This document shows, one piece after another, positions 911-29,879 of a stretch of DNA of 64,000 bases. The DNA is from Leptogorgia sarmentosa. Lineage: Eukaryota. The notes under the pieces were generated by a model, which saw nothing but the letters and a program-made list of their open reading frames with translations, was not told where the DNA came from and did not search any database. Made by a program: the position numbers and the translations under genes. The first letter of the stretch is position 1, and each line of letters begins with the position of its first letter. The stretch lies in assembly GCA_964658305.1 (NCBI GenBank), contig OZ210885.1:22692001-22756000 (forward strand). Reading direction: 5' to 3'.

Positions 911-2026
911 TAATTTCTGCATAATTGGATATTTGCATTAATTACCAATGCAAATTGAAGCTAATTCCCAAAGGTCCGTAATTACGCGAAGAAATTGCGG
1001 AAAATCCAGTTTTCGGACATCGCACATTCGTCTCGGCGTGCACCAAATTTCTCAAAACTTGAATAGCTTGTATATCGTACTCCATATTTTCATCCGATTA
1101 ATTCAAATTGTGTGAAGAAAATGTCCCAATTTCTCTTGATGTGCGAAACTCCGTAGTGTACCGATGTCCTTTCAATTTTTAAGCAAAAATTATCCAGTTG
1201 TAACGTTATACTATTGTTCATCATTGTTTGCAGCTATTCGTATGGATAAGAAATTTAACTGGGGAAGTAATGTAATCTAAGATGCCTCGAGTTATAGTAC
1301 ACAATGCCGCAAAGCCCCTCCGGAATTTGGATTTTTGCGAAAATTGCAACTCAGCACGTGTTCGTGGGATGAAATATTTGTGTAATACAATATGGCGGAC
1401 GCTAAGGAGTGCGACATTGAATCAGTAATGTGGCCAAGTTTCAACAATGTTTGAACATTTTGCCAAAGCGGTTAAAATGTTATTTGAATATCTGCAATCT
1501 AGAAAACAAGTATGGGTTGTCATGAACAAAAATGGCCATAGCCCATACTATCAACTGCTGCCGTGGATATTATAAATGTGCAAACATTTTTTAGTTTGCC
1601 GTCTTTGCCTTGAGGGTACACTTAATGCAGTAACACAGTAAACTCGTCGCAACAAGAAAACCATAATTTTAAATCTTATTTAGTTCATACGATTGATATA
1701 TAATGGTCGATATATTCGCTTCACACATTTATTTGAACGTGTTTGTTTCCATTTGTTCTCGCCATAGTCGTTTTATTATTATACTGTGAGGGTCAAGAGG
1801 GTCAGAGGTCAGAGATTCAACAAAATAATGTCGAGCACGCGAAATTTGAACGTGCGGATTTCCTTTTTTGGCTATAAAATCTTTTAAATTATTTTATTAT
1901 ACTACATCAAGCTTTTCTTTGAGCTGATGTTACATGGAATGATTTTTAACGGCAATTCAACAACACAACAGGGCCGAACAGGCCGCCAAGCGACATTAGC
2001 TTTAGCTCGATATCTTCGTAGAAACT

Positions 2027-4548
2027 TTGCACTATCCTTGGATTCCTAGTTCCTCTTCCTCCTCCAGTAGTGAGGATGAAGCTGGTCAAGTGTGCAAGAA
2101 AGTCTGCACGTCTGCTCCTGCTCCTCCGAGTCCGTCAAACGCTAGCATGTGGCCGGAGTTCCCGAGCCCTCCTACTCCAACTGCCACTCTTGAGGCCATG
2201 GAGGCTGACGTGGACAAGTGCTTGAGTGGTGATACGGTCGTGGACCCTATCGTCGCTCACGAATCTGCACCTGCTCTTGCCTCTACTGAGCCAGCCGGAT
2301 CCCCGGAGCGTATGGATGATGCTCCCGTGCCTTGTCAGGCTGATGTGGACGATGATAATGCTGCTTTGCAGGATCCTCCTGCAGTGGATGTCTCGTCCCA
2401 ACAGTCTGAGTCATCCCTTGATCTTTTCGAGGCACTGGCAGCCATCCATGAAGACTCACTGTCTCGTCTTTGCATGACGAGACTTTGCAACTCTACTCCC
2501 AAGCGTGCATCTTTGACATGCACGACTTTTAGTGATCAGCTTCGTGCTGATCAACTCGAGGAGCTCCTTCTTGGTGAACTGCCCACTTCTGGGACATCAG
2601 ATTCCGATGGTGAGTCTGATGTCCATTAACATCAACGGTCTTAACGACCGTGTTAAACGAACCGCCCTGGTGGATTGGTTAAAGTGTATGAAGGTGGATG
2701 GAACCTACGCACCCCGACTTGTCTGGAACAGTATATTAGGGAATGTGAATACCATCCCTCCTTATCGGATCATCAATACTTGCTGGTCAAGTTACAATTT
2801 GGTGATCGTATTGCTAGTGGTCCTGGAGTGTGGAAGTTTAATACTTCCCTCCTGGACGACAAAACCTATTGCGCCCTTGTCACTTCTTTTTGGTCCTTCT
2901 GGCAGGCCCATTATACACCTGAGGCCTTTCCCTCCATTTTGGATTGGTGGGACCAAGGGAAGTTCTACCTTTAGAGAAGTGACACGCAATTTTAGTCGGT
3001 CAAAGGAGCTGGACCGGCGTGAACATAAATCCTTTCTGACCAAGCAAATGCACAGACTGCAACGTCTTTTTGAAGCAGGGGATACCTCTGCATTCGCTAA
3101 GCTTTGTGAGGTACAGGAAGAGCTCCGAGGCATTGCTTTGCATGAAGCTAGAGGGGCACAAGTTCGTGCTCGCTGTCAGTGCGCTGAGGAGGGGGAAACT
3201 TCCTCCTCCTTTTTTCTCAATTTAGCCACTAAGCGACATGCAAAGCAGGAGATGCACTCCATTCGAGACCCTGACACCGGTTCCGTGCGCCACAACCCTT
3301 TTGAGATCTTAGACGTCTGGCGGCGGTATTACACCGGACTCTTTACTGCAGCACCCTGCGATACATCTGCTCAGGATGAGATGCTGTCAAAGCTGTCTCG
3401 TCGCCTTAGTAAGGAGGAACGTGCGTGTTGTGAGGGTCTTCTCTCTTTAGAGGAGTGCTTTACTGCCTTATCTGGTATGGCTAGAGGAAAGACTCCGGGT
3501 TCCGATGGCTTTCCCATGGAGTTTTACCTCAAGTTTTGCTCATGCCTTGGCGCTGATCTGGTTCGCGTCCTCAACGTTGCTTACGAGGCCGGCCAGCATT
3601 CCACCTCTCAGCTTCGAGGTCTGATCATAGTACTATACAAAAAGAATGACCGCTTGGAGACAAAGAACTGGCGGCCGATTAGTCTGCTCAATGCAGAGTA
3701 TAAAATAGCTACTCACGCTATTTCAGGTCGTCTCCTAGCCGTCATCGGGTCTGTTGTAGGGCCAGATTGGACATGCGGTGTTCCAGGCCGTACCATCTCA
3801 GAGAACCTCTTTCTGATCCGTGATCTAATTGAGTATGTGGAGCATGAGGACATCCCCCTCACTCTGCTCTCTTTGGATCAAGAAAAAGCATTTGATCGGG
3901 TCAATTGGGGTTTTCTTTTGCGGACTCTGGACACCATGAATTTTGGTCCGGATTTCTGCCGATGGGTAAAATTGTTTTACTCCGACGTTGAATCGGCTGT
4001 TGTTATTAATGGCTGGACCTTCTCCTTTTTTCGCCCTTCACGGGGTGTGCGGCAGGGTTGTCCACTTTCTCCACTATTGTACGTTCTGTCGATTGAGGTG
4101 TTAGCGGCTAACATCCGCTCTGCCCCAGGTATTACTGGTGTTTTTCTCCCTCAATCGCTGGAACAGTTTAAATGCTTTGGGTATGCCAACGATACGACGA
4201 TTGCTCCTACTATGGAAGAATCGATCGAGGCCACCTTCGAGGTATATTCTCAGTTTGAGAAAGCCTTGGGTGCTCGTCTGAATCGCGGCAAATCTAAGGG
4301 CATGTGGCTGGGCTCCTGGAAGCACCGTACCGATACCCCTCATGGTATCCAGTGGGTTAAAGAACTCCCATTACTTGGTGCAACCTTCAGTGCCGCTGAC
4401 TATAGTCAGCCGACCTTCGAGCCAGCCGTTTCCAAGTTGGAGAAACGTTTGTCAGACTGGTCTGGACGCAAACTGTCCTTTGAGGGCAAGGCCACAATTA
4501 TCAACACCTTGGCCTTGTCCCGGATATGGCACTTGTGTCACGTCCTTT
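2027..4548 (+). mobile_element. Degenerate Tx1/L1-clade LINE: ORF1 C-terminus (to 2629) and ORF2 from ATG 2607, with partly deleted APE endonuclease and an RT domain
   Basis: Motifs 'SININGLND', 'SDHQ', 'GPGVWKFNTSLL', 'EEGETSSSFF', 'KTPGSDG', 'WRPISLLN', 'LDQEKAFDRV', 'GVRQGCPLSP'. The catalytic YADD is mutated to YAND. Frameshifts present; homology stops abruptly at about 4548. Confidence 0.9.
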
Positions 4549-5025
4549 TAAAGAAAAAGAGCCAGGGAACGGATATGTTGGCCCACCGACCTCAATCCGC
4601 AACACGGAATGCAAAAAAAGAACCTAATAGACCACCGACCTTTGAGTTGTCCCCAAACAGACTCCTCGACAGGTCACACACAAGAAGAGCTATTACCCAC
4701 TAGCTAATAAAAACAATAAAAAACACTGTAATGGGCGGCCCTATGCTGTGTCGCGTGCTAACCGCGCAACAAACAGTAGGAAAGACTACCAATCGAGTTC
4801 CAAAGAACCAGAAAAGCAGTCCAAAAGAAAACGAATGGACTAACTGCTACCTTGACACCTATCCAAGTAGGCCGGCCAGACAGCGGGAAGACAGAACAAA
4901 GAAGAAGGCGTGTCTGCAAAAAGAACTGCAGCTAGTTGTAAACCTTGCGAGCAGAGTTACAGGTCCATGTTCCTGAGCATAGATCCTCTACTGCAAGGGT
5001 GAAGAACCTGACACGACAAAGACGG
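4549..5025 (-). mobile_element. Non-coding element with a Tx1-like 3'UTR, fused directly after U1 nt 17
   Basis: 4587-4636 resembles the 3'UTR of the Tx1 at 18617-18661 (cgacc(t)caatccg..aacc(t)aata..gaccacc). T-rich on the minus strand, no recognisable ORF, several stems. Confidence 0.55.
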
Positions 5026-5042
5026 TCGCGTCAGGTAAGTAT
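5026..5042 (-). ncRNA. U1: U1 snRNA 5' fragment (nt 1-17), disrupted gene copy
   Basis: Minus strand ATACTTACCTGACGCGA is identical to the U1 start at 17200-17184 and has the same upstream flank. Confidence 0.9.
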
Positions 5043-5478
5043 GACTTCATGGCGCATACAATTACCTTTTATACGCTGCAACCGTGAGGAATGCTTGTGG
5101 AATGAATGCATGGGGATGAGTTTGTCTGTCGATAGATGGATCGATTGATCTCTCGGACTGCACCGTGTTTGCACATTCCGACAATTCTCGACCCGCATAT
5201 TCAATATGAGTTTACAAAAAATTCCATGAATGTAAATCTCATGAACAGCGATGCTGTTTTGTTGGCCAACGAGCTACGCAAGACTATTATAACATGAATG
5301 TGTTAGGCTGCTCACCATGCAAGTATAAATTCGTGGTCGGTCATCCGCAATGAATGCGTCATATATACGTATTTCCTGCCAAATCGCGATGATCAATCTG
5401 TAAGGGCAAGAATAATTTGTTAGAGTTTTGAACTGATAGTGAGTGAGAAATTTTCCCCCAATAATGAAATTGGGGAAA
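5043..5478 (-). repeat. U2-to-U1 intergenic spacer of the snRNA array, containing the presumptive U1 promoter
   Basis: Highly similar to 17201-18114 once the insertion at about 17536-17979 is removed. Lies between a U2 3' end and a U1 start in both copies. Confidence 0.85.
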
Positions 5479-5650
5479 GTGGGCCGTACTCAGCGGTAGT
5501 GCAATACCGAGACAAAAATCCGATGGCCAAGGCGAAGCAAGCTTCAATCCTATGGCCGAGGTCCAAAAATCAGTTTAATTATATGAGTTAGGACATTGCC
5601 TAACATATCAGATATTAAGCTGATAAGAACAGATACTACCCTTGATCTTA
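5479..5650 (-). ncRNA. U2: U2 snRNA gene from nt 22 to the 3' end, 5' end displaced by a retroelement
   Basis: Minus strand TAAGATCAAG(G)GTAGTATCTGTTCTTATCAGCTTAATATCTGATA, Sm site GATTTTTGG, stem-loop IV with ATTGCAC loop. Confidence 0.95.
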
Positions 5651-7250
5651 TTTTGTTTAATAAATCGTTTTAACTATTTACAAAAGGCGTAACGTGCAAT
5701 GCCTGTAAGTCAAAGCTCTGGAAAGATCATGCTCGTCTAGTCCAGCTAGTGATACAAGTCTGGCTTGAAGCCCACAAAACTAAAAAACAAGTGCTCGGCA
5801 CCTGCTAGTCCTCATAACTAATGTAAGTTCTGTCCAGAATCGCACCAAAAATGGCTTCGCGAGTCTCATCGTTCAATCCTCGTATACACTCTGGGTGGGT
5901 AGAAGCAAAGAATACCTCGTAAGCGGCTAAGGTATCCGGTGGCAGGTTATCAATTGGGGCTTTCGCATCCGGCAGGGTTTCGGGAAAGTCCTTGTACTTG
6001 CTCCGGGCCTCCATGTATGTGCGCACGAGATTGTAACGGCTGTATGGAATATCGGTTGTCGTGGTACCAGGGGGAAGAACCGGTGTCAGGAGAGCGGAGG
6101 AAGACAAATCCACACAGTCACTGGGCCACTGGAGGGAACGAAGGTCTGCCACGGCCTGCTCATCCAGTTGGAGAGCTTTTTGCCAGGTGGGATGACGCAA
6201 CGATAGAGTTTTCTCATACTTTGGCCGTAACTCCGAAGGAATGCGGCGATACACAGCTGTAAACTGTTCATGATCAGCTGCAGTTGCTTTGGCACCCAAA
6301 ACATCATCCCGGACACATTCACGTTCGTAGACCTCATAAGGAGGAATATCCGTTCGATCCTTCTTTGAAGGATTTACAACATCGGAACCCGGAAACTGTC
6401 GCTTGCCAGTATCAGGGTTAACAGGTGTCGACGTCGAGGAAACATCATCCATTTGGAGATCAACCACAGAAGAATCACTTGCAGGAGATTCAGGTGACGG
6501 GGGATCAACCAATACGGAGCGAGGGTTGACATCAACAGCCGCGGGGCGCTTTTCAGAAGCTACAGCCGACGTCTGAACTGCCGGCTCACCAACAATGCGG
6601 GACGTAGGGGCTCCACTGGTCTTCTTGAAGGGGCTGTTTCGCGAGATATTACCGGTCTGCTCACATCGAAAGCATTGCTGCACTTGGCCACGGTAGAATA
6701 CGTTCACTGGATAGTTAGCAATGGTAAGACGTGAAGGAATCGGTTTGCGTATCTCCATTTTGACCAAGTATACTGATATACCGATGCCATGTACCAGTTC
6801 TCGACGTATCTTCAAGACGTCACCATAATCGGACAACCGAGACTTAATGGCATTTTCTGTGGTGCCATACATCACACAGTTTAATTTGATCCATTGGGTG
6901 TTGGGCGCCGGGACCAATTTGACAGGATGGGAGCGGAAGGTAAGACCAGAGTGCAGTAAAGCTTCAGCCTGGCGACTATCGGAACAATGCATCACGAACG
7001 TGGATGCATCAGATTGCATAACATTCTCAATTTTTTTGTTGAGGCGTGGGGGACTTGGCGAAGGAAGTCGGAGAGCATTTCCTTCAGAGTAACAGGAGTC
7101 GTTGCCGCAGTTTCCATAACGGCGTCAGGAATCGTGCCCACCAGGGCTCTTGCGGCGAAAGGGATAGCAGCCATATGACCGAAGACCACCAAAAGCGAGC
7201 AGGAACACGAAACTGCTCGCGACGCACGCGTGTTCTCCACGAATTTCTGG
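5651..7250 (-). mobile_element. ORF1-only (HAL1-like) Tx1-type retroelement with its 3' end joined to U2 nt 22; 5' boundary approximate
   Basis: One gag-like ORF, then about 155 nt of 3'UTR ending ATTAAACAAAA|TAAGATCAAG. No EN or RT sequence. Confidence 0.75.
5805..7174 (-). pseudogene. Tx1-type ORF1 (RRM-like region plus CCHC knuckle), one frameshift near 7030
   Basis: ATG at 7174 (MAAIPFAARALVG), shifting into ORF 7019-5805 with 'LSDYGDVLKIRRE', 'KPIPSRLTIANYPVNVFYRGQVQQCFRCEQTGNISRNSP' (decayed CX2CX4HX4C). Confidence 0.8.
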
Positions 7251-7702
7251 CGATTTTTTGGCAGGCGCACGTGGCGCTTTTCCCCGACCTACCTTGGTTC
7301 GCGACCGATTTGCGAATGGCAAATGACCAACATGCATTGAGTTGAACGAAGCGCGTCCGGTTGCGCTTCGGTTGGAGAAATGACGAGTGCATTTGAATTG
7401 GAAATGGTTGTTTAACATAAGTCTAGTATAAAATGCATGATCGGTTGGCAGCGCGTGTATCGATTGACTCATTCATTCATTCCGTGTGACGTGCCTACAA
7501 CAAGGTGTGAGTAATCCAATATTGATTGCATGGTTATGTATTAGTTTCGAATGACCGCGATGTAGTATCGAGTTACATGTGCGGCCTGCAGTGTGAAGAG
7601 CACATAGAATTGTTGTCCCTTCAATAAACTAGGATGCCGACCCGACGACATTTGTAATATCAGTTTTGAGTATTGGAAGTGAGAATAATAAGATGAGGAT
7701 AA

Positions 7703-7842: not shown

Positions 7843-8095
7843 GGTTGTGGTTAAAGGGGATGGACGAGAGGTAGGTGACCGTGTGAGGTCTGGGTCTAGT
7901 TGCGTGTTTGCTTCGTGTTCGTGGTACACGCGAGAACAGATTACTTTAGGAAAATTTGGAATTTTCCAAACATTCTCGCAGTTCAGATATTAATATAAAA
8001 TAAAGATGATTTTTCGGTAAATTCGTATCAGCAACAGCAGCTACAGCAATTTATAGTACTTTATGGAGACGCGGAAAGGTATATAATTATAATAT

Positions 8096-8780
8096 TAAGG
8101 ACTTATTAACCGAGTGTGAGGTCTGTACGGGAAAGTATTGCCTGAGGGTTTTCGTACAGACCGAGCGACGAAAGAGCGAGGTCTGTGCGTTAAAAACAGA
8201 AGGCAATACTTTCCCGTACAGACAGAGCAAATGAGGTTAATAAGGGATTTATTATATGGCTTTGTTCGATCACAATTTGTTCTGACATTGTAGAAAGAAC
8301 TAGAAAACACTTTCGATGCTAAAACGTTCAGCCGTATACACTGGCCTACTGAATGGCGGTTTCTGGCCGTTCACTGCTGTACAACAACAAAACAATAAAA
8401 ATACAACAAAGGAAAAAATTGAATAAAAAAATACAATGTAAATGTCGCGATAAACAACAAATGTTCGATGCGAAATGAAGCCATTAAGTGCTGCGAAAAC
8501 AATGTTCGCAACAGTTTTCGAACTGTTGTTTTGTTTGCCGTTATTTTCACTTTAAAACTCAGCATTTTGGATCGTGTGTTTTTCTGGGACAGCAAAATTC
8601 AATCGGGGATTGTTCTTCAACGTCACCGTACGGCATAATAAGATTTAGTTTCCTTAAAAATTTTATTTGTATAATAGTTTCACGAGCGGGCAAGATGACT
8701 TTCCTGAGCGGGCAAGATGACTTTTTCCGGACCGCTAATCAACCAATCAGCGTGCGGCATTTATGTCAGCCATATAATAA
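8096..8780. mobile_element. Non-autonomous element with a palindrome at one end (8096-8250), family uncertain
   Basis: Inverted arms gtctgtacgggaaagtattgcct / aggcaatactttcccgtacagac. Ends cagccatataataa. Flanked by the direct repeat TATAATAT at 8088-8095 and 8781-8788. Confidence 0.65.
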
Positions 8781-11278
8781 TATAATATATAAATGTATAT
8801 AATATGAACTTTATTATCGCTACGTGTATTTAAATTACAAAGCTGTTAGCCTGTTATGAGATTATGAAAGACTTGATTCTGATTGCAACATTTTGTTCAA
8901 TTAATGTATGTGGGAACATTGTGAGCACTTTGTTTTGAAGGCACTCATGCAAATGACTTCTCATTTGTGACTGGTCAAACATCACATTCTTTAAACAAAT
9001 CCCTTTTGCTAAGGCAAGAGCATTTGCAATTGCAAAAAGACCACAATCATTTTTTCCTTTCTGGTTCTGACACATATATGCCTTCACCCTAACTGGTTGA
9101 AGCCCATCTTTGTTCTGGCCATAAACGTGTAGGAGTTGACAAGCAAGCTTTGAAGAAATTGATGGCTCCATTGAGTCATACACTGTTATTCCTCCATTAG
9201 ATGCACTTGATACAACCCAGTGCATGTTGCCAGAATGGTGTATTTGGATACTTGTACCACACTCTGATGTTATTGGAAGAGATTTTCTACTGGCCACTTG
9301 TAATGAATTTGCTAAACCCTCTACATTTGGGAACTGTTGGCGTATAAGATCTTGTGCAGAGTTCATGATACTGTCATTTAGCCATGCATGACTGCTTTGT
9401 AATATCTTCTCGTCTTCCTTGTGTAGCCCTAGTGAGGAAACCCACAATGCATCACTACTGGATTTTTCTGCACTGCTGCCTTGATTTGTTAAGTCAATTA
9501 TGTTTTTTGATGGTTTTGTTGTGGATGAACTTGCAGGAATTTTTTTTATAGGAACATTTACTCTGTATTGCTTCCTCATAATTTCTGCATGACGCCCAAC
9601 TCGTTTGGCGAATGGATGACAAGGTTTACCATATCTTCTTTCAGGGAGGCAATCTTTAACATCTTTTTTCACTTTCTTAGCTTTTTTTGACATCTTCATA
9701 TTTTCCTCTCCCTTCATTGTAGATACTGCTAACTTTCTTTTCTTTCCCTTTTTCTGACAATCTTCATGTTCCAAAACAATGCCATCATCTGATTTCACCA
9801 GTTGTTCAGTTTCTTGAAACATCTGTTGAAGTTGACCTTCAAGTTTCTCAAGGCTTGGCACATCCTTCAGCAAATAAGTCAGTCCGTTCAACTTCTTTAA
9901 AATAACTCTACATTTAGCCTGCATGAGTTTTCTGGTTGTTTTTCTTCTCGGTGGAAGATCTTGTGTCTTACCATGATTGTTCAAATCTTTTTCAGCTTCA
10001 ATTGCACTTTCTGTGGTTGTACTAGTTGTGGTAATTTCTGATGCCAAGCTGGATTGCTTGAAGTGAAGAATAACAAAATACAAATTAGAATGTACTATTC
10101 TTCTATACTACTCTTCTGAATCCATTGACTGTTGGGTATGGTATAGGTTTGAAGTTCAATGCCATCTTAGATTTTTTGCCAGATGATTTGTAACTGACAG
10201 AAATAGAACATTATAATTAATTAAAGGGACAAGCTGATACCATTTTGTTCTAATAAGTGTGCTTGTAGTTTGTAAAGGAGTGCTGATATTACAAAACAAT
10301 GTACACTAACTGCATGAGAGCAAGGAAATTAAATTAAATCTGTAGCTGCCTTTTATTGACAGTTACTTTCAAAGACAATGCTGCAGTACTATAAACAAGT
10401 TTTAATAAAAATTACTCTCACTCTGATAATTACAGGTCAATGATATTCCTCTGTATTACATTGTAAATGCTGTTCATGCACAACTTACCTGTTCTTGTTC
10501 CTGATAATTGTCTGGGCAGTCTCCGGGTTTGGTTTAGACAGACCTCATCTAAATTTAATATGGAGAGGCTTTTGTACAGCGGACTCAAATCATTCCATCT
10601 TTGTTCTGTATTTTTGAAGACAGCACAAAAATGTTTGCACAGAAGCTTGGTTTTGTTCCAGTCTGCACACTGGCAACTTGGATGGCTTGATTCATCTCCA
10701 AAACTAACAGTGTACCACTTGCTGGGGGTTGTTGTACTCTGAACAGAGTATTTTCCTTCTCCCATTTTTCTGATATTCTCGCTTGTGTACCAGCAATCTT
10801 TCCATCTTTTCAAAACATGGGCTACAACAAATCTTGGTCTGTTCTTCAAAAACTCTGGAATATCTTCGTTGTACTTTCGATAGCCTGACGAATACTGGAC
10901 GTTCAATGAGACATATCTGTGAACAATGGTGGTGAATTTTAATTAGGAGATCTGATTAGAAGGACAGGGCTTGTCCTTTGTATGTTTTTCTAGTAGTTGC
11001 ACGGCTAAAGCCTTAGATCCTTTAAAACTGTTATAAAGATTTCCACAACGATGATTATGAATATGCACTTACTTCAAATAAGAGTCAGGCAGAAAGTTTT
11101 CAATGACGACATTCAGCATTTCACTCAGAGAGCAATTTTTGTAGCCAAGCAGATATTCATACTTTAATGCTTCGTTCTGACGCTCTACTCCATTATTTGT
11201 GTGGACTGCTATCTCCATGTCTTCGATACGGAATGCTTGTACCCATCTCTAAAGAATGCAAAATAGACGTCGAACGAA

Positions 11279-11384
11279 TTCAGACGTCGAACTTTCCATG
11301 CGCCGAACCTTATGTTAATGAGCTAAGTTCTTTGTTTGAGCTCATTTGCATTAGGTTCGGCACATGAAAAGTTCGACATCTGAA
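11279..11384. mobile_element. Small palindromic MITE in a MULE intron
   Basis: Inverted arms ttcagacgtcgaactttccatgcgccgaacct / aggttcggcacatgaaaagttcgacatctgaa. Confidence 0.7.
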
Positions 11385-11434
11385 CTAGGCTCTAGGCTTC
11401 AAAAGCTGCTGCATCAAGTAAATTGGAGAGTAAC

Positions 11435-12677
11435 CAGGGGCGGATCCAGGGTTAGACATGACCGGTTTGTAGGGGGGTCCGGGGGTATCCTCCCCCGGAA
11501 AATTTTTGAAAATTAGTGCTCTAAAACAGCATTTCCTGCTTTTTGGGGGGACTAGTTTGACAATATCAGCGATATGAAAATGCACCTTTTTAATACAATG
11601 CTCTGCCATTAAAATATTTGATCCGGTAGCGAGGCATGAATGATAATTGGTACGACACCACAGAATATAATTTAGTGCTCTTTGACGCATCGATATTAGT
11701 TATCAATAGAACAAGTACAGCTAGCTTCAATATAGACATAGTTGGCATTTCAGATCGACAGTTCTACATGTTATCAAACCAAATTTAAAATGAACAAACA
11801 GCTGAACAAAATTGTATTTAAGCTGGAAGGACTGCTTAGTCAGAATCACGCATTTCCTAATGCGATGTCGCCAACGCAATGACACAACAATCAAACAAAT
11901 CTATACAAATCTATGTGCATTTTTCGCGCTATAAGTACACTTACATATTAGGTCACAAGAAACGTTGACGCATCGATGTATGTTATGCTCATAGAACAGA
12001 TAAACACAATTATTTAATATATAATTTTAAACAAACCTTTAAAAGAAACAAGAACCCATGTAAATGCACAAAAGCTTTCATATAAACCATTTCCTCATTC
12101 ATAGTTGCCAACACAAATATTCTGCCACGCAAAATTATAAACATATTTCGCGCGTCCTCGAGTTCTGTTAACCCTCTTACCCAGTTTTTTTTCAGACTGC
12201 TCGATTCACAGGTTTATGACCGGTTTACATCCGCCGATGCGCTGCCGTTTAGCCAATCAAAAGGCGTAGCGACCGGTTTATTCTCATTAGGAAAACTCTG
12301 ACCACCGGTTTACACACAACTGCAGGCGTCTATATGACTATATTTGTTTCAGGTCGCGTTTACTGACCACAACCCACAACGATATATCAGCACTTGCTAC
12401 AACTACAGTATTTCGTAAGCGGAAACAAATGCGATAATCTTCAAGTGGGGTTGTACGTCAATAATTTAAAATCGCAAGGTCATATAAATGATGTAATCCA
12501 TGATCAAATTTCATGCTGCATTTAAATAGCATACGTAGTAAGTTATATATCACACTTTTTGTGAAAGAAATTGTCCTCAATTAAGGCCAAAAACAATATA
12601 ATAATTCAGAATTCTCTTTCTCTGGAAAATCTGACAGGTTTACATAAACCTGTTAAACCTGTCTGAATCCACCCCTG
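11435..12677. mobile_element. Non-autonomous hAT-type element with a 6-bp TSD
   Basis: Termini CAGGGGCGGATCCAG and CTGAATCCACCCCTG. Direct repeat AGTAAC at 11429-11434 and 12678-12683. Internal accggtt repeats. Confidence 0.75.
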
Positions 12678-15600
12678 AGTAACCGTAAATTCTTCGAAAC
12701 TTTTTTCGAATTGGGAGAAAGTTGAATATAGCTTTTACAGTCAATATAATATTACACAGCAGTGTAATAGCCTTCAACCCACTAGTCACAACCTTATTCT
12801 GCGCACATCATTATTATCCTTGCATATTTTTTTAGAAGACAAATTCATTTTGTATGAACAGGCATACAAAAAACCATCGATTTAGAAATATTTACCTTTG
12901 CACTTGGTAACCACTTTCCTTCTTGCCATCTTTGAAGTTTTAAGGACGATTTCCATATCGTACTTTCTTTCATAATTTTCACAGCGTCTTCAAACTGTTG
13001 TATTGTGGTTGAGTGAGCAATAGAGCAAAGGTAGCGCAGAATCTCATCTCTATCCTGACTTACACCATGGTCAGATTTGCTGATCGATTCACTCCAAGCT
13101 TTCTCTTGATGGAAGTCGCACAAAAAAACAGTGCTTTCTACAATGAATATTTTATATTTTGTTGTGACTAGGATTTTATTGATAATGCTACATGATAATG
13201 ATTCCCGTTCATGGCTCACAATTCCCGCCCATTTTTTCATGCAGACGCAATGTTAATGTCCGAGATCATGTTTTTTCATTGTACTGTATGTTAGGACTCC
13301 AAACAGTTCAACATGTTGTAAATGTGTCCATGTGAATAAGCATTGTTAGCAGTAAAGTGCATTAAAAAATATTCACTATAAAAAATGTATTCAATATTAT
13401 TGTAATTATGTTTAGAAATGTTTTAATGTGATTTCTTTAGAAATTGACCACACTAAACTTACCAGGAAATATAGATTCAATAGCCTGTATCTCCGCATCT
13501 GCAAAATCCACCATAAAGTTCTTTGGTTTCCACTCAGGGTTCCATTTTCGAAATATTTCTAGTGCTTCTTTGATACTTTCAATGTCTTCTTGTTGAATGA
13601 CGAAGAGACCAACAACTTGGTAACAAACATTAGTCTTTACACAAAGAAAAGAGGGGAAGTGCGTATCTTGTTGTTCGATAAGTGGCGTCAAGGAGGCACA
13701 TGTTTCCATATCTTGCAAGTAGACGGCGTTGTTCCTTAGATTGGTAACAAAACAGCAGATTTTTGTGGTGAATAGGAAATGTCATGGGCTTAATATTATC
13801 AATGTCTTCCTCAATGTTATCATCGCCCACCTCAGAAATGGAGGTATCTGAAGGTGTTGTGGCATCATTGGCATCATGAGTATGAGCTCTAAAGAAGAAC
13901 ATGTCGTCTGGTTTTTGTATTTTCCATGTAGTAACCAAGTGTTGAAGGTAATCTTGGTCGATATGAGTGAAACGTTTTTCTCTTTTAATTTTGCTGATTT
14001 CGTTTTTGATATCCTGCTTTCTAGGAAAATATCTTCTTCTTGTTCTGGGTGGAATAGCCTGGTGTTTGAAGAGGTCGTTTTACGTACTGTTCCAGGTATC
14101 TTTTCACATCACTTACTCTTCTAACACTCATCCCAATAAGTTCTGCTATTTTCTCTTTCAGAGCAGGATCTATTGACTCGCAAATACCTGCTGCCTGTAA
14201 GAGAATTTAGAAAAACGTAATTTTGATATACAAATACATGTATCGTGAATCACTAGCAATATTAATAAATGTATGCCTTGTGCAAGTTTATAGTAGGTTT
14301 TCATGTTGGTGGGGTAGCACATTTCGCTATAACTGTTCTATAAATAGTGCTCCACTAATCAATTCATTCTTTAGATTTCCTTCTTTTCACAAGTTTATGT
14401 GTCATGTTGATTTTGCACAGAGGTATAAGCAAAGTTGCCCTTTAGCTGAGAAACGGAACAACGACAATAAATAGGCAGATGTCTTTATAATTACCTCTCC
14501 AACTATGTGATTAGCATGCTCATTTGGCCCTGGCAATTTGATGTAAAATCTTGACTCCGGTTTAGCATTGCCCTCCTTAATAGATTCCCGCAAAATTTTA
14601 GAGCTTTGCTTCCGCAACCATGCTGTGTTACGTAGAACCTGTAACATACAAGTTATCAAGATTCTCTTATAGGTATAAAAATTAACACACGATGACGAAA
14701 CTGAGCCATTACAAGAGTCTAGTAATGGCAACCAGTTACACGATGAGGAACATTATAATGTATAGGAATAGCTCTTTTCTAATAAACATCAATTTTTGTT
14801 GTAATTTTTCATAAGAAATGACGAATTCGAATTAAACTATGGAATTTTTTTAATGTCATTATGGCTTACTTAATTTGAACAGAGAGGGACATAGCCTGAA
14901 ACTCTATCGTGATGGAGTCGATCAAGAAATGATCAGAAAAGTTGGCAAACTATTCGATTAAAAGATCTTTTTCTTTCTGTATAATTAGATATCATTACAT
15001 ATTTACCGTCATAAAACTGTACACTTTATATTCTCATAGTCATAGACGCTTTCTTACCTTATTCTCTGGAAACTTTAAAACATGCTTGATGGAGATAGTT
15101 GCTGGACAATCCTTCTTCTCTGTATTTTGTACGTGAAATCGTTTCTTGAAAGTCTTGTCGTAGCTGTGCTCTACAAACTGAATTTCGAAACACATACCAT
15201 ATTTAGCAAACATGAAAATTACTTTGAAAATTAAATGGATATACTTCATTCATTTCATACCTGGCTACTATCTGATTTTGACCTATTCGCTGCCTTTTCA
15301 GCTTTATGTTTGTCCTTTCCCTGATGACACCAATATATTTTCTCTCCATTCATGATAAAAGGAACTCCGTCAAATGGCAAGCTATGCTTGGTTCCGTTCG
15401 GTGACTCCCAACAAACGTTCTTGTTTGTTAAAATAGCATCTTCAATTAAAGTGCGAATGATAACTAAATTATATGATATAATAATGTGCATACCTCTTGT
15501 ATTACTAAAGCATGCATTGCTGCTGTAGACAACAAAGCGACTCATCGTTGCTTTTTCATACTCGTGTATTACTTGGTCGATCTCGTCAAGTGAACTCACA

Positions 15601-15860
15601 TATCCTTCCTTGTCTGAAAACCAAACTCCTCATCGACTACTATCCAGCAATTGCAGTTCCGCCATATTTTAATAAATTAAATTTCCCGCCAAATCAAGTC
15701 TACACGCGGGCTCACGATTGCAACTTTGAAATTCTTGAATTTGTAGGCTTTGCCGTTCGGATTAGTCGGTTTAAAGCGTATTTTCTTGTAAGTGGTTAAA
15801 ATGTCTTAAGGCCCGTTACATACGTCGAATTTTCTTCGCATCGAATACAGTCACGATTTA

Positions 15861-16044
15861 AGGGCTGTATTATTTTTAGAATTTATGAAATAGGGTTAAT
15901 TAGAATTAGCATGAGAGTTGGAATAAAGTTAGGACATGGTGTGAGGTTAGGATTACGGTTAAGATTAGGGTTAGCAATTTGAGTTAAGGTTAGCATTTTG
16001 GTTAGGATTATAAGACAAAAAGTCTGAAAATAGAAACAACCCCC
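15861..16044. repeat. MITE-like repeat with a degenerate (TTAGGG)-like interior
   Basis: Loose inverted ends gggctgtattatttttaga / tctgaaaatagaaacaacccc around ttagg and ttagc units. Confidence 0.45.
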
Positions 16045-17166
16045 AGAACGTGAAAGGTGTGGTTGCAGAACACAGTTTCTCCAAACCTCTCAAATGCTCA
16101 TTTGTTTGCTGGAGAGAGGGCGAGGTTAATAGATTCCTACAAGAAACCCATTCCCTCTGCCATGCATTCTCTAAGGTGTGTGTGTGTTGTGCTCAAAACT
16201 GGTAACTTTATTTTATATAAATTACACTTTTTCCAGAAAAGTACTAGTTGGTCAGTTTTTCCTGTTCACTATCCCTTGCTTGGAACTTAATCGAATTGGA
16301 ACTTCATGATAGTATTATAAGTCAAAAAAGTGAGATAGATCCTGCTTGTGCTGGGACGGATAGCCTGGTTCAGTATTCTACCAATGGCCTTATAACACAG
16401 AGAGTAGGCAATGCCTCTATGCATCTTTGATAGCTATTTTGCTCCAAACAAAAAAAGTTTTAAATTTCAATTACAGGGAATTAGACTAAGTTCTAAAAAT
16501 AATTTATGCAGTATATATGTGTTGATGTACAGAATCTGAATTGTGTACAAACACTTTTATGCCACACATCAATAACATTAGTGGAAAGGGATCAGATTTT
16601 TTGCACAAGTGGCTAATTGCTAAATAATATATGTCAACCTGTATCTCATACTGCTGTGTGTGTAAATCCAAGGGATTGTTTCCTTTGACATGTTTTTATA
16701 ATTTAATAAATGTGAATGATGAGAAGGTGGGCATTGGAATATAATTATCTGGGATCAAGTGCTGCTCCCTTGGAATATATCATTTTTCAAGGTAATTTTT
16801 TGAGGGATATTCTGGTTGGTAACTGATAAATAATTACATTGAAAGTTTAAGTTTTGTTTAATCTTTGCTGGCTAGAAGCCTGAGCAATTTTCAATTTCAA
16901 GCAGGCCAGGCTGGAGGGTAATTTTTAAGGTAGAAGGTCAAGTCAAGAAGAATATAAAGTGATTATCTCTTGAATATTGCTCAGTCAAAAACCACTAATT
17001 TGAGTGAAAAATCTGAACTGCGAAAATGTTTGGAAAATTCCAAATTTTGATTAATTTTCCTAAAGTAATCTGTTCTCGCGTGTACCACGAACACGAAGAA
17101 AACATGCAACTAGACCCAGACCTCACACAGTCACCCACCTCTCGTCCATCCCCTTTAACCACAACC

Positions 17167-17535: not shown

Positions 17536-17979
17536 ATATTATACCTCAAATTCAAATTGTCCAATGAAAACACAGCATTTGTACCACGTGATAGTGTGAT
17601 TTCTTACGGTATTTCACTCAAATTCATGATTTTGCAATCCAGCGTGGGATACTATAATATCCCCTGGCAGATACACCGTGGGATATTATAGTATCCCACG
17701 CTCACGCGTGGGCAACACGCGCCTAGCATAGCTAATTAGCTATGCAAAATGGCAGGCGAGCAAGACTCGGACGAAGAAATAAATAGACTTCTTGAAAACA
17801 ATGATGCAAAAATGTTTTGTTCGGTATAATATATCATTTATAGACCCTCCGCTCGGGGGATTCGGCGCAATATTTCCCTCAGTAATGATATTTTCCTCGG
17901 GGCAAAGCCCCTCGGAAAATATCATCACTTCGTGAAATATTACGCCGAATCCCCCTCGCTCCGGGTCTATAAATGATAA
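17536..17979. mobile_element. Non-autonomous element with a terminal palindrome, inserted in the U2-U1 spacer
   Basis: Absent from the other spacer copy (empty site near 5370). Palindrome of about 145 bp at 17831-17978 (tatcatttatagacc...ggtctataaatgata). Confidence 0.8.
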
Positions 17980-18114
17980 GTATCTCCTGCCAAATAAATG
18001 CCGGATCGCGGCGATGATCTACTACATTTACTGATGTAAAGGCAAGAATAATTTGTTAGAATTTTGAACTGATAGTGGGTGAGAAATCTTCCCCCAATAA
18101 TGAAATTGGGGGAA

Positions 18115-18281
18115 GTGGGCCGTACTCGGAGGTAGTGCAATACCGAGACAACCCATGGCCAGGGCGAAGCAAGCTTCAATCCCATGGCCGAGGTCCAAAA
18201 ATCAGTTTAATATATGAGTTAGGACATTGCCTAACATATCAGATATTAAGCTGATAAGAACAGATACTACACTTGATCTTA
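18115..18281 (-). ncRNA. U2: U2 snRNA gene from nt 22 to the 3' end, disrupted by a Tx1 LINE
   Basis: Minus strand TAAGATCAAGTGTAGTATCTGTTCTTATCAG with intact GTAGTA branch-point pairing sequence, Sm site and SLIII/IV. Confidence 0.95.
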
Positions 18282-21200
18282 TTTTGAGTTGAATGACGAC
18301 GGGCTTGTCGACTCCGACGGTGCAATGGAACCTGGACCCAAACAAGTCGCCGCACCCAGGGGGTCACTACAGGTGACGCGGATCGACGGGTCGTGAGCCC
18401 CTCCCCCGCGCCACGATGCAACCGTGAGTGGCCTGAACGATCCGGTGCTATCCACCTTCACGCCCAGGAATCCCTAACCTAATGATGATGAAATGGTCAG
18501 ATGATGATGTTAAACTAGACGATTACAACATGAGCAGCAACCCCTAGATCAAAACCTGTGCAACCCACTCGGAACAAGTCCAAGGGAACCACAGGGCAAA
18601 AATTGAAACAAACAGACGACCCAATCCGATACAGGCAGTACAACCAATAAAGGCGACCACCAGATCTTCATGGGAGGACAAAGCGAACCAACATTAAAGA
18701 TAAAAACAAATGTGCTGTCCAGTCCAAAGACAACTATAAGAAAACAAACACGTCCAGAAGGCGACGACAGTACAACCACTGAAGGCGACCGTCATGCCCC
18801 TAGACCACACTATTTAAGAGAAAAGGGAGGAGAGAAAGGAGGAAGGAAGAGAAGAGAATCAAGTGATGAAATCACGTGTGAATCTGATCCAGTCCTGCTC
18901 TGTTAGCGTGCCTATAAGTCCGTCTGCCAGCCACTCACAAACAAACCGGTGCCGAGGGCAGTGGTGCTTGTGCATACGCACCAGAAAGCGGAAGGTGGTC
19001 TTAGCTTTCTTCAAAGTGGTGGTGACATCTGGGTTGACATGATCAAACCGACAGGTGTTGCGGTTAAGCCAGATGTGGTGACGGAGCACCCCAATCAGAG
19101 CGGAGAAAACACTGAACACCTCGCAGTGTGCAGCGAACCCAAACAGAATTTGATCTGTCGGCAACGCAGGAGCGGACAGACAAAATTTTAGGTACTGGCC
19201 ACGAAACCAAGACCAGAGAGAGACAGAGAACGGACAACTTGTAAAGAGGTGTAAAAGTGTTTCCTGTTCCCCACAGAAACACAACTCGCATACCAAAGCG
19301 GACCAGTCTGTTAGCTGTTGGTAATATGCCATGGAAATTCAACCAGGCCGTATCCTGAACCGACCGGACAAACCGCCAAAGGTGAAGGCTCGCCCACGCT
19401 GCTTGCCACGGTACATTGATGCCCCAGTTGCGATACTTAGCGACGGAACGGTGCTCGGTAGTCGAAGAGCGGCGAAGAAGGGAGTATGCCGTACTGGCAG
19501 TTAGCTCTTCAAAGGGAAGTAATTGCCCTGAAGGACGAGGGACAACCCATACGCCCTGATCGTTTTGGCCATGCAGAGTGACCCACGCGGAAAGTACACC
19601 CCTATAACATAGGGGAAGTTTTTTAATTAAATAGGCTGGAATCGGACCCGAGCCAAAACGTCAGCAACCGACTGACCAAACACTAGCTCAATATGGTGGG
19701 GAAAAAAGCAGGACCATGGGTGCATGTGGTTAGCAAAAAAGCGACGGAGCCAAACGGCACGAATGGACAAGATCTTATTTGAGATGTCTACAATGTTAAA
19801 CCCACCGTCTCCGATGGGCTGGACCACGGATGTACGTGCCATCCATTCGCGCTTTTTTCCCCAAACAAATGGAAAAATTATTTTATTGATTTAAGCTATG
19901 GTCATTTTTGGCAGGTAAAAAATTGTTGCTTGGTACCAGAAGAGCGACAGCCCCAAGGTATTTACAATAAGCGCTCGGCCCCTAAAAGACAACTGACGCT
20001 GTTTCCATATCGACAATTGCTGTTCTAAATTCGCTACCAAAGTGTCCCAGTCGGCAGATTCGACATTGGCAATCCGACACCCCAACACAGTTATGGCGTC
20101 ACTGGACCAATTGAGCTGTACGGGTAGGTCAACTCTATTCTTCCAAGATCCAAAAAGAAGACCATGATATATATAGCTTTTAGCTATATTCAATTTGCAC
20201 CTGACGCTCGTTCATATTTTTCAAAAAGGGAAAAGAGCGACTGCAGGGCCTGCTCGGAGCGAACAATAATTGAAGTGTCGTCGGCATACTGAAAAATTGA
20301 TGGTCTCTCCATTGAACATTTGGAAACCGTCAATATTGAGGTCCTTTTTTATTGCACACGAAATGGTTTCCGCCACAATTATATATAGCAAGGGAGAAAG
20401 AGGACACCCTTGACGAACGCCGCGAGTATTACCACATTACAAAACCATTAACAAAGATGCGAGAAAAAATGTTGGTGTACAGGAGTTTGACCCATGCACA
20501 AAAGGACGGACCAAAATGCATCTTTTCCAAAGTGCGTAACATAAACCCCCAGTCAACTCGATCAAAGGCCTTCTCTTGATCTAATGATATTATGGCACCA
20601 CCAGTATTGTGGCGATTGCAAAAATTGACTACATCTTGTAATGCCCTGATGTTCAGCCCGGAAAACTGTCCAGGAACACCACAAGCTTGAGATTCTGAGA
20701 TAACAGAAGATAGCACTACTTTAAGGCGATTGGTAAGTACCTTAGATAAAATTTTATAATCTGTGCATAAAAGGGAAATGGGCCGCCAATTCTTGACATC
20801 CAAGCGGTCATTTTTCTTAAAGAGGAGGGAGATTAACCCAGTTCGCTGTGAAAAAGAAAGGGCACCTTGTGCCATGCAATCATTATATACTGCAACTAGA
20901 TCAGGTCCCAAAATGTCCCAGAAGGATTGGTAAAACTCGTATGACAAACGATCAAGACCCGGAGACTTATTGCGCTTGAAGGAATTCAATGCTCGCTGGC
21001 ATTCAGTTAATGTGACCTCTCCTTCACAAAGCTGGGCTTCTTGAGAAGAAAGAGATTTATCTAAACTATTGATGAAAAACGACTCATCCGGGTGAGATAA
21101 AAGAGATGATGAAAAAAGTTGAACATAAAAAAGGCACCAAATTTGTAAAATCGCAGAAACAGATCTTACTATAGTACCGCGTGCATCGCGAATGCCTGTA

Positions 21201-21324
21201 AATAAACGGCGTGATGCCCTCGCTTTCTCCTGTCGGAAGAAAAAGGCAGAAGAAGTTTCACCTTCCTCGGCCCACTGCTCCTTGCCTCGAATGCGCGCAC
21301 CTTCCGCTGCATAGAGATGTTCTA
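18282..21324 (-). mobile_element. Tx1-clade LINE (ORF2 RT, CCHC finger and about 580-nt 3'UTR) with its 3' end at U2 nt 22; 5' part lost at the Tc1-like insertion
   Basis: Motifs 'WAEEGETSSAFF', 'KSPGLD', 'WRPISLLCTDYKI', 'LDQEKAFDRV', QYADDT near 20285, 'CFCGEQETLLHLFTSCP'. Stop at 18859. Ends TCAACTCAAAA|TAAGATCAAG. Frameshifted. Confidence 0.92.
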
Positions 21325-22170
21325 CAGGGTGTATAAAAAAAAAGTTTACTGATGAAAAACATTCTCTAAACTAACGAGCGCTCAAAATTTCCAAAAACGT
21401 TCGGTTAGCATAGGTAGTTTAACACCCTCTGGTATATCTAGCACTGAGTTTATTTTAAAAACAAACTTTTTTAGATTGGGAAATGTGGTTACTGAAAGGC
21501 CCATTAAAAACGGCTTGCACGGAAAAAATAAGTTTTCTTCACGCAATTTGATTTAATCGGTTGAAAATCCTCCTCCACATCATGACTATGGATAACAGCT
21601 GGTTAAACAGAACAAAAAAAAATCGCACTAGTCTAAATCTAATTTAATTTCTGATACTGCAAATACCAACGAAAAATTTGTTGGCTCAAGCGGGATTTGA
21701 ACTCCCAGCTTCGGGTTTCTAGAATCTAGACTATCTATCTGTCTAAGTCGTTAAAGCTTGTCTTGGAGGGCAACGCAATGTTTCAAATTCATTCTATCAT
21801 CCTCAGCGATATGAAAAGCTGATTTCATTTATAATCTCATTTTAATGAACAAAAGTGAGAGTTTAAATCCCACCACAATAACTTTGATTTTATCAACTGT
21901 GTTAAAAAACAGACAAACATAATTACCATCATGGTGATCATTGACCTCTTCCTCCAGTATTGCAACGTTGCTGATTATACTTGATTCTATAATTAAATAA
22001 TTTTAAAACCCATTTCATTTTCATAGACGAAGGTCAAAATTCAAATCACACAAACTGACAAACATAATTACCATCATGGTGATCATTGACCTCACCCTCA
22101 TCAATTGCAGTGTTGTTGCCTGGATTTGATTCTATAATTAAACATTTTAAAACCAATTAGACAACAAGGT

Positions 22171-22653: not shown

Positions 22654-24017
22654 ATGGAGGACGAACACGAAGAAGACTGTTTGTTGTTGCTTGCGTTAGT
22701 CATAATCTTACGTAGAAGAAGGAGAAGGAGGAAAGAAAATGTAAAACCTAGAAGATTTTGGGTTCGTGATATATTTAGACGTAGAAAAACAAGTAGTGAA
22801 TTTCACAATCTTGTCCGCGAGATTAGACTTGGTGATCGAGAACTGTATTTTAGGTAAGATCAAAGATTTTGTATCTTCGCTCTTCAAAAACAATCACATG
22901 AATAAAGTGTAAACTTTTACTGCAGATATATGCGTATGTCTCCAGAATCTTTCGACCATATTCTATCTTTGGTTGAGCCTTTGCTTACTAAGAAGTCTAC
23001 TACGTTACGTGAACCAATCTCACCAGTCGAGCGATTATCGCTCACATTGAGGTTCCTAGCTTCTGGAAGTAGTCAAATCTCAATGTCCTTTACCTATCGC
23101 ATTGGAAGATCGACTGTCAGCAGAATCATAAGTGAAACTTGTTCTGCTTTATGGCAAGCTTTAAATGAAAAATATTTAAAAGCTCCTCGTTCCCCTGCTG
23201 CATGGAAGAACATATCGGAGGAATTCATGAAACTGTGGAACTTTCCCCCACTGCATCGGTGCGATAGATGGGAAGCACATTGCCATTGAATGTCCCAGTA
23301 ATACTGGATCCCTCTACTAAAACTATAAAGGATTCTTTAGTGTGGTATTAATAGCTGTTTGTGATGCTCACTATGTTTTTAACTTAGTGAATGTGGGAGA
23401 CTTTGGTTCTAATAACGACAGCACAGTCTTAGAAAATTCAGCAATGGGCAAATCATTTGGGCCTTCCTGATGAACAAGATGTGGAAGGCTGCAAAATACC
23501 ACTGCCTTACTTCCTTGTTGGGGATGATATATTTGCATTAAAAACTTGGCTGATGCGATCATTCCCAAGGTCTAAATTATCCGAAAATCAACAAATTTAT
23601 AATTATCATCTATCACCGGCACGACGTGTCATTGAAAATGCCTTTGGTATTCTAAGGGCTAGATGGCAAATTTTCAGCCACCCCATCAAGGGGTCTGTAG
23701 AAAATGTTATAGAAATAACAAAAGCAGCTATTTGTCTGCACAATTACCTCAGGATAACTAGTAGTGCATCATACTGTGCATATGGGTTTGTGGACAGTCA
23801 GGACACAACTGGAAATATTAAACCTGGGGAGTGGAGGTCCATTGTTGCCAATGAAGGAAGTGCACTGCAGAATATGCCTCAGCCTAGAGGAAGCAGATTT
23901 TCAAACTCAGCAATGAAAATTGGAGACGCTCTTGTGGATTATTTGGTCTCGGATGCAGGGTTGCCTCCTTGGCAATGGAATCATGTAGGAAGCAGGGGAG
24001 AATTTCTTAGTGAATAG
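22654..24017 (+). pseudogene. Harbinger (HARBI1/ALP1-like) DDE transposase
   Basis: Intron 22854-22925. Motifs 'ERLSLTLRFLASG', 'IDGKH', 'YFLVGDDIFAL', 'ARRVIENAFGIL'. Has frameshifts and a stop. Confidence 0.9.
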
Positions 24018-27552: not shown

Positions 27553-29879
27553 GGAGGACATTGTAGAATTATCTGTTCCTGCCTCTTCTCCATCAGAAAA
27601 AGTTTCATTTGGAACATCATTATCATCCTGTATAAGAACCAGGTTACTGCTGCTATTTCTTTGTTGAACATATGGATCTAACAACTCCAAATATGAAAAC
27701 AACTCTGATGCGTCTTTCCTGGCTTTTCTAACTGCGTCTGCTGTGGACCCACTCTCTTTGGAACGATTTATCTTTTTCTTGTCTCTGCTATACCTGTTTC
27801 TTAAATTTCTAAAAGCATTTTCAGCTTCTTTCCCTACAAATAACGTAGATATTTAGTAAGAACACAAATAAACCAACTTTTCAATGATTTTTCACAAATA
27901 TTTCCATATTTATACACATACATATTTATATTCATGACACAAAAATGCTGCTTACTGGAGAAAAAGCCTACTTCTTTCGTGACATCATCCCATGCGAATT
28001 CTTTCTTCTTTTTATCCTTAAAATCTTTAGATTCATTGTTTATAGAATGGGAAACTTCTGCCAATTTTTCGTCTACAACAACTTTTTCCGCCATTTTGAA
28101 TTTTGAGGCAAGCTGGAGAACTGGATCCAAGAACTCAATGATTGGTTATTTCCTCTTCTGCTTATGTTTACGATTGCGTTGATCTGTCCTCATTTGCGAG
28201 AAATAAACCAACATAAGCATAACATAAGCACAAGAAAGAGCGCAAGGTCTTCATTTGCTTATGCTTGTGTTTTGACTGTCCTCACAGCGTTGCGCTTATG
28301 CGTATGCTTATGCTTATGTTCAGTGAGAACCAGCGTTTAACTTCTCTGTGGATATTAAGTAAGGCCAAGGCATTTAATCTCTTCTCTCCCATCGTACTGC
28401 GCATGAAAGTTTTAAGTCGGCGAAGAGTTGATATTGATCTTTCGCAGGTACATGTTGTGACTGGTATAGTGCCGAAAATTTGCATAGCGGTTAGAATATT
28501 GGGAAATGACAATTCGTCAATACAAGGAAGTAACTCTTCAAGAGAAGCTGGGAGATGTTCGGTGTAGTCGGTCCACTTGAGCCTCCACATTCGTAACTCA
28601 GTTTGCAAGAAGTCGAAATCAGGGAGATCATCTTTGTACCTGGTGAGGAAACGCAAGTAATTTTCTTTCCAATTTGGATCAGCTACGACCTTGTTTGACA
28701 TTCCAGACATCGCATCAAGAACATCTAGGTTTCCCTTGAAAAAGCGAGATTGTATTTGACCTAACAGTTGGTCCAAAAAAGGGACGGTCACTGCTCTCTT
28801 CCAGTACTCGGAAATGGAATCTGATGGAACTTGAACAGCGGGAGCTCTTTTTCTCTTCGGCTCAACGTTGACTTCCTTTGCCAAATCTATTGCCATCTGA
28901 TAGAAAGCATCGTGAGTGGTGTCGATATCGGAACGAAGCTCGTTGATGGCCAAATACAGCAGAGAAACTTTCTCACGAGCTTTGCCAGCGTCAAGAGATG
29001 CAGACTGGAGTTGGAGTGTCAAGGGCTTTGTGCATTTCAGGCAACGTTCCACCAGGATAAGACACAAAAGGAACTTGAACTTCTTCATTGCAACCACCAT
29101 ATTATCAAACGCCATGCAATCTTTCATTTTTTAGAATAATTAGCTTCCGTCCATCAACTAAAAATTGCTTTTGAGCCTTCAAATTTCATGTGCAAGACAT
29201 TTTCTATCTGTTGGAAAAAACACTCCCCCCAGGTTTTTGAAAATTCAAATTACAAAATTTTTTCATTTATTCTACATTATAAGTACTCAACCAATCCACA
29301 TAAACCGAAAACTTTGTACCCCCTTTGCGAAGTTGAGAGCGATTTAAAATCTGTTCAGTTTTTTTTATACACCCTTGTATTGCAAAATTTAGTGAGTTAT
29401 AAAAAAACACTGATTAGAGGTTAAAACTATTTACAAACATTTACTGTTTATAAGCTCGTCCTGAAAAAGAGAGTTTATGCCTTTCAGTTCCAAAGAAAAA
29501 TAATATTAACTATGAATAGTTTTATTAGTTTTATTTTATTTAAATATTTATATATAGTATAACAATGACACAATATTGTATTTCCGATTACTATTACATT
29601 TACTGAGCTAGTAGTATTACTAGTATCTATAGAAGCTAGAACCCGGGGACAGGGAATATTATATGACTGCCATCAGTCATATAAAAATCACATAAAAGTC
29701 GCATCGGAATGACTAATGAGTAATATTGTGAACAGGACGTCAGTTACGACCCTACTGATACATGCTACAGGCCGTGTCTTCCCTACATATATCTGACCCC
29801 TTGATTAAATGAAAGAATGATAGATGTACATATTCCATTCTGTTGTTTAATATTATTGCATAATTTAATACTTTAGAGT

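Follow-up and report, generated by a model that had tools for sequence, protein, structure and literature searches.

The interrupted U1 and U2 genes of Leptogorgia sarmentosa

The window, which is the whole 64,000-nucleotide stretch of Leptogorgia sarmentosa DNA analysed here (contig OZ210885.1, positions 22,692,001 to 22,756,000 of the forward strand), contains four snRNA genes, two for U2 alternating with two for U1, and all four are interrupted. One of the U2 snRNA genes persists from nt 22 to its end (5474..5650, minus strand; Rfam RF00004, 106.5 bits) and forms the 3' flank of an inserted element of ~1.56 kb (5651..7207, minus strand), a 5'-truncated and decayed copy with an ORF1 only, whose limits were set from the spacer boundary, the junction and an analysis of the reading frame. 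On the minus strand ORF1 is followed by a 3'UTR of 154 nt with a short A-rich end (5804-5651) and then directly by U2 nt 22, the arrangement that an earlier, sequence-only reading of this DNA had described. ORF1 covers ~455 codons (1370 nt) from the ATG at 7174 to the stop at 5805 (5805..7174, minus strand), and its translation starts MAAIPFAARALVG.... The length given in the sequence-only reading is borne out, but the single open frame is not, as the frame shifts in an A7 run at 7031-7037. A contig from run X1 is identical to the window over 6065-7164 (0 differences, 0 gaps), so that the frame break is not a simple assembly slip, although X1 may be the window's own sample.

Several features could be placed on the minus-strand ORF1 by comparison with relatives. 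Two predicted RRM domains occupy 6687..7150 (approximate limits, from the AlphaFold model of the relative P0004, Foldseek and VIA), a zinc knuckle recognised through Pfam zf-CCHC in relatives lies at 6633..6674, a conserved basic motif, GKRQ...KKD, was located at 6357..6407 in the protein alignment, and an all-helical, internally duplicated C-terminal domain extends over 5808..6347 according to the structure model and an hhalign repeat comparison. The knuckle of the window copy reads CCNS, where CCHC is present in 58 of the 62 knuckles among the proteins compared, and Pfam detects no domain in its ORF1 pieces. With a frameshifted ORF1, a mutated knuckle and the U2 5' part lost, the window copy is dead.

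The element had previously been drawn out to position 7250, but its 5' end lies at ~7207, and 7208-7690 is high-depth spacer of the array. Fifteen runs were listed, seven of them holders, with no RNA run listed among the holders, and the contigs of four runs were compared with window positions 5660-7690, a range that leaves the U2 junction itself outside. Across these contigs the spacer at 7208-7690 has a far greater depth than the ORF core; the window subfamily reaches ~3 in X4-X6 and 83-88 in X1, with the spacer at 250-1000 and >10,000, all values being summed contig depth and not copy number. The common spacer form diverges from the window letters at 7208, so the window copy abuts the U1-to-U2 array spacer (7208..7702, minus strand, assigned from read-contig depth) directly, retaining a remnant 5'UTR of ~33 nt (7175..7207, minus strand; loose ends at 7208 and the depth step), and the promoter-side end of the spacer and U2 nt 1-21 are missing before it. 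The U2 5' piece is accordingly absent in front of the window copy, and comparison of 7175-7702 with the U1 upstream region revealed nothing promoter-like (score 23). In agreement with the sequence-only reading, a permissive tblastn search of 5652-7700 with both neighbouring ORF2s recovered no EN or RT remnant (best E 0.089).

The remaining snRNA genes and their surroundings carry further insertions. One U1 gene is split by a 9.3-kb MuDR/MULE DNA transposon (7843-17166) with ~160-bp terminal inverted repeats that are 90% identical, a 10-bp duplication of U1 nt 25-34, and MULE, SWIM and ZSWIM RNaseH-like matches together with a weak Ulp1 protease match. The second U1 gene ends after ~17 nt (5042-5026, minus strand) and gives way to a T/G-rich segment of 480 bp (window 4548-5042), which resembles a LINE 3'UTR, matches neither of the tails described below and adjoins a plus-strand LINE at ~4548. 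In this LINE fragment (1990-4550, plus strand), which is cut at its 3' end, the last part of an acidic, unrelated ORF1 is accompanied by an ORF2 that has an RT and an EN region affected by a deletion and a frameshift. Short palindromic MITE-like insertions (17641-17702, 17832-17978, 11282-11381 and 8121-8223) lie within the MuDR element or the U2-U1 spacer, with miRNA matches that remain below the gathering score. From 22900 to 62000 the window is dense in what, from their translations, we take to be DNA-transposon ORFs: presumably Harbinger-like (22906-24000), hAT-like (28285-29130 and 38421-40592), MULE-like (32224-33267, between inverted repeats at 31074-31491 and 33568-34007) and RecQ-like (41842-42705).

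The ORF1 protein family and its domain architecture

A search with P0001 yielded 32 homologues among 6809 candidates, with 32-63% identity and mostly >90% query coverage. With the first 185 residues of P0004 as the query, 39 of 380 candidates matched, all of them the same kind of protein; all or part of the C-terminal domain is present in 31, and the remaining eight stop early, at 258-443 aa. In the AlphaFold model of the intact relative P0004, two RRMs are followed by the knuckle, a disordered linker bearing the conserved basic motif, and the helical C-terminal domain. The RRMs match tandem-RRM RNA-binding proteins (Foldseek E 2.5e-5; VIA Z 9.9, rmsd 2.8, 72 aligned), and the basic motif is likely a nuclear localisation signal. 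Pfam zf-CCHC is found in 28 of the 29 aligned family members and Transposase_22 in none. The description of the protein as gag-like therefore holds in the sense of a LINE type I ORF1 (RRM-RRM-CCHC), although the extra C-terminal domain had gone unremarked.

When modelled alone the C-terminal domain reaches a pLDDT of 93.6 and a pTM of 0.89, and its internal duplication is detected by hhalign (P 87.7%, E 3.4e-6). Foldseek returned no match with E<=0.001 in PDB or BFVD, the best VIA match had a Z of only 3.7 (rmsd 5.4, 133 aligned), and there was no usable Atlas match and no Pfam match, although missing structural matches do not prove a new fold. A phmmer search with P0053 gave 14 matches, of which 13 are family members or their fragments; the fourteenth, P0077 (E 1.7e-4), is an unrelated repeat protein and was rejected as a relative of the domain. 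Among 25 intact proteins the mean identity is 53% in RRM1, 75% in RRM2, 77% in the knuckle, 27% in the linker and 28% in the C-terminal domain. The latter, while no more conserved than the aligned linker, is present across the family, suggesting a domain that changes fast and is nonetheless retained. A tree of 26 rows resolves several deep groups with good support.

RRM and CCHC domains characterise the type I LINE ORF1, which, in the available account, fits the Tx1 clade when found in animals other than mammals (PMC5203782). The searches with the N-terminal part, for fused forms and with P0053 brought up no ORF1 relative from beyond the family, and a putative Tx1 origin of this ORF1 is for that reason proposed from the domain type only.

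The insertion site in U2

Two unrelated tails in the window have their 3' junction at U2 nt 22, as does a tail from run X4 that is related to that of the ORF1-only element. The 5' side could be followed in relatives, where 11 proteins in five clusters have mis-called N-terminal extensions in which SLLGLLA or RFSAFWL stands 64-113 codons ahead of where ORF1 begins (a distance computed for all but one of the 11). These peptides are the U2 5' end in two frames, as established by hand translation of the U2 sequence in the Utopia supplement. Four further extensions of at least 64 residues are too short to reach the U2 motif. The 5' junctions lie at approximately U2 nt 24, 25 and 27, varying both between and within clusters, and ~170-310 nt separate the U2 5' piece from the ATG. 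Upstream of the U2 piece, the relatives have further sequence that is common to clusters.

A 3' junction at nt 22 and 5' junctions at nt 24-27 imply a target duplication of 3-6 bp, the two junctions being taken from different copies. The 3' flank of Utopia and Keno starts at U2 nt 39 in the published descriptions (PMC4640811, PMC6136364), and the nt-22 site lies 17 nt upstream of it. The same sequence outcome would be produced by an ORF1-only family at the Keno site if U2 nt 22-38 were the element's own 3' end, with the nick between nt 38 and 39 and a loss of 11-14 nt of target at the 5' side, and in the literature available Keno is reported at nt 39 from cnidarians to vertebrates. Three different tails nevertheless join at nt 22, and with 5' junctions at nt 24-27 in five clusters a duplication of 3-6 bp suffices without two extra assumptions, which makes this alternative improbable. 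Neither an ORF1-only U2-specific LINE nor an nt-22 site was met with in the literature searched, although Repbase may already hold cnidarian or lancelet families with an nt-22 junction.

Evidence for an ORF1-only family

Of the 77 proteins, 30 had their contig sizes tabulated, among them every protein on a contig of <5 kb. After the exclusion of three partial proteins from this short-contig count, a full ORF1 is present on 20 contigs of <5 kb, and 18 of these (13 clusters) exceed the ORF by only 207-466 bp, the other two extending 910 and 2506 bp beyond it. A margin of 207-466 bp is compatible with two UTRs and overlaps that reach into a common high-copy flank, and would hardly be expected if a 6-kb LINE had broken at random, although contigs may break for other reasons and other relatives are found on contigs that range from 4 kb up to 1.8 Mb. 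The P0014 sequence begins upstream of U2 and has at most 238 bp remaining after the stop. Eight proteins in three clusters, for which the longest contig listed is 650,706 bp, are 97.9-100% identical within clusters, which is what young copies within an array should look like, provided that 650,706 bp is one contig.

Hand translation of loose ends from runs X5 and X6 gives VVVGWSFGPA and LDPVVPRGTS, both of which occur in P0003. This suggests that P0003 represents a sister family, present in runs that carry the species label of the best holder. Four of the five contigs in the P0003 cluster are 1797-1808 bp long, and one member has the U2 peptide. A joint between 6138 and 7128 had been considered as an internal deletion and was rejected, the intervening letters being unread and the loose ends matching P0003.

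These data bear on the possibility that an autonomous, U2-specific LINE has this protein as its normal ORF1, and that ORF2 was lost from the locus through a single internal deletion. The decay and low depth of the window copy, downstream sides of the relatives that are judged from contig margins, and a related tail, discussed below, that is commoner in X1 than that of the window copy would all suit such a deletion. The small margin beyond the ORF on 18 of the 20 short contigs (13 clusters), the position of P0014 between U2 and a contig end close to its stop, and a locus without an ORF2 remnant speak against it, as does the search for a longer fused form, in which no homologue of 794-2265 aa was found among 7986 scored, albeit in a weak search. 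A one-off deletion is thus unlikely, although a little less so than the Keno-site alternative. Copies with an ORF2 between ORF1 and the tail did not come to light, as judged from the contig margins and the search for fused forms, and the absence of ORF2 from the relatives, read from contig margins and not from their DNA, is the most likely state. With many clusters, tight contig margins and U2-headed members, a U2-specific family that is multi-copy, has an intact ORF1 and, on those margins, lacks ORF2 is most likely, as the sequence-only reading had proposed.

The family was not confirmed in other sources of sequence. The protein scan of metagenome contigs gave 80 candidates, none confirmed, and the junction-pattern scan of the same source gave none; the scan of viral contigs gave 27 candidates, none confirmed; and of two scans of prokaryote genome contigs, one gave no candidates and the other 23, none confirmed.

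Tails and the candidate partner LINE

The second U2 gene of the window likewise starts at nt 22 (18110..18281, minus strand, nt 22 to end; Rfam 142.9 bits) and adjoins a decayed, 5'-truncated LINE (18282..21370, minus strand) consisting of an ORF2 with matches to Pfam RVT_1 (E 1e-15) and zf-RVT (E 0.0018) and a 577-nt 3'UTR that ends at U2 nt 22, a 3' junction identical to that of the ORF1-only element. Its EN and ORF1 are not in the window and its site specificity is read from this one junction. From the appearance of its motifs it is a putative Tx1 element and a candidate partner, and its ORF2 is 43% identical to the other ORF2 in the window (1990-4550). A repeat present in two copies (21374-21534 and 4-164, 92.5% identical) cuts the 5' side of this U2-junction LINE with one of them.

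The distinctness of the two tails, noted in the sequence-only reading, is upheld, since alignment of the 154-nt tail with the 3'UTR of the neighbouring LINE gives a local score of 19, reached by 94 of 300 shuffles. The neighbour is consequently linked to the ORF1-only element by the site only. Folding of the tails revealed no obvious common structure (no shuffle control). A tail related to that of the window copy over 5660-5734, its last ~75 nt, is present in runs X1 and X4, joins U2 nt 22 in X4, and in X1 is commoner than the window copy (depth 437.6 vs 83-88). It was not found in X5 or X6, which hold the P0003 family. The owner of this related tail may be another ORF1-only family, an autonomous element or the true partner.

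The independent LINE at the same nucleotide also bears on whether ORF1 is a host-domesticated gene that was spread in the U2 array by gene conversion after transposition had been lost. Frames that are intact across deep divergence, and an autonomous parent that was not found, would be in keeping with domestication. Against this stand, besides that LINE, the occurrence of several families in each genome, variation of the 5' junction (nt 24, 25 or 27) from cluster to cluster and inside clusters, almost identical copies sharing a contig, and many broken copies in databases, and domestication appears very improbable.

Relationship to known elements

HAL1 elements are described as non-autonomous, encoding ORF1p only and needing the ORF2p of a partner; they are derived from mammalian L1 and have a type II Transposase_22 ORF1p, and target specificity is unmentioned in the portions of PMC5753468 and PMC5786205 that deal with them. 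The window family, by contrast, has a type I RRM-RRM-CCHC protein with an unrecognised domain, a fixed U2 site and no parent that could be identified in the protein searches. The HAL1 likeness put forward in the sequence-only reading thus applies to function, as an ORF1-only element, but not to ORF1 type, Transposase_22 being absent in the 29 members scanned. HeT-A and Ag-Sponge are likewise ORF1-only, and HeT-A is limited to telomeres (PMC5786205, bioRxiv 10.1101/445429); as presented there, however, they belong to the Jockey and CR1 clades, and HeT-A extends chromosome ends rather than occupying a nucleotide of an snRNA gene.

Keno (Tx1 clade) and Utopia, as characterised in PMC4640811, PMC6136364 and PMC4494074, resemble the window family in their U2 target, precise 3' junction, variable 5' junction and in some copies without the U2 5' part, but are autonomous with an ORF2 and have a 3' flank at nt 39 instead of nt 22. 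The window element shares with Keno the insertion into U2, but neither the nt-39 flank nor the APE endonuclease-RT ORF2, which is absent from it. SINEU and the U2-headed Tx1-Mar also have U2 at the 5' end, and their trans-mobilisation has been argued from the target they have in common with a Tx1 LINE (PMC4494074). SINEU elements are, in that account, non-coding, mostly <500 bp and inserted in Mariner elements, whereas the window family is 1.6 kb long and protein-coding, further sequence common to clusters lies ahead of its U2 piece, and the remainder of U2 comes after the element. The best reading is that the window family is like HAL1 and HeT-A in function, but is not HAL1 and is not at the Keno site.

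Proposed mechanism and implications

Taken together, the window copy is quite probably a decayed member of an old ORF1-only, non-autonomous LINE family of ~1.6-2.1 kb. This copy resides at nt 22 of U2, and the EN/RT of a full-size LINE with the same site is the likely agent of its insertion. Mobilisation in trans, as the sequence-only reading had suggested, is likely, and the argument from a common target has a precedent in SINEU and Tx1-Mar (PMC4494074). The host U2 promoter would drive transcription of an intact copy, and the transcript would begin with 24-27 nt of U2. Its ORF1p, with two RRMs, a CCHC knuckle and the basic motif, would coat its own RNA and carry it into the nucleus, where the ORF2p of a Tx1-type partner would nick between U2 nt 21 and 22 and reverse transcription would be primed on the A-rich tail. 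A second nick 3-6 nt downstream would give rise to the short duplication, and the promoter side and the reading frame of the window copy would have been lost later. The ORF1p of ORF1-only elements is thought, in the part of the literature covered by PMC5786205, to multimerise with the proteins of the partner. The helical C-terminal domain could conceivably be a protein-contact module that aids the capture of the partner machinery, which is the weakest step of the scheme and a doubtful one. A bolder and distinctly tentative proposal, for which the case is slightly better than for that step, is an ancient, self-standing lineage of ORF1-only satellites with no close autonomous parent left, which would parasitise a previously unreported U2 nt-22 site across many genomes, driven by the U2 promoter and using a new, lineage-unique helical domain to hijack the RT of LINE partners with unrelated tails.

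ORF1-only LINEs are reported from three clades, L1, Jockey and CR1 (PMC5786205), and why they retain ORF1p is a standing question. A nucleotide-specific ORF1-only LINE whose families are many, diverged and intact, and whose protein has an additional domain, would make this question testable, as the fixed target offers a simple PCR read-out of whether ORF1p and its C-terminal domain are needed in cis for capturing the ORF2p of a partner. The family would also provide a second LINE target site in U2, beside that of Keno and Utopia, and a small-sized design for cargo that is to be inserted at a specific site.
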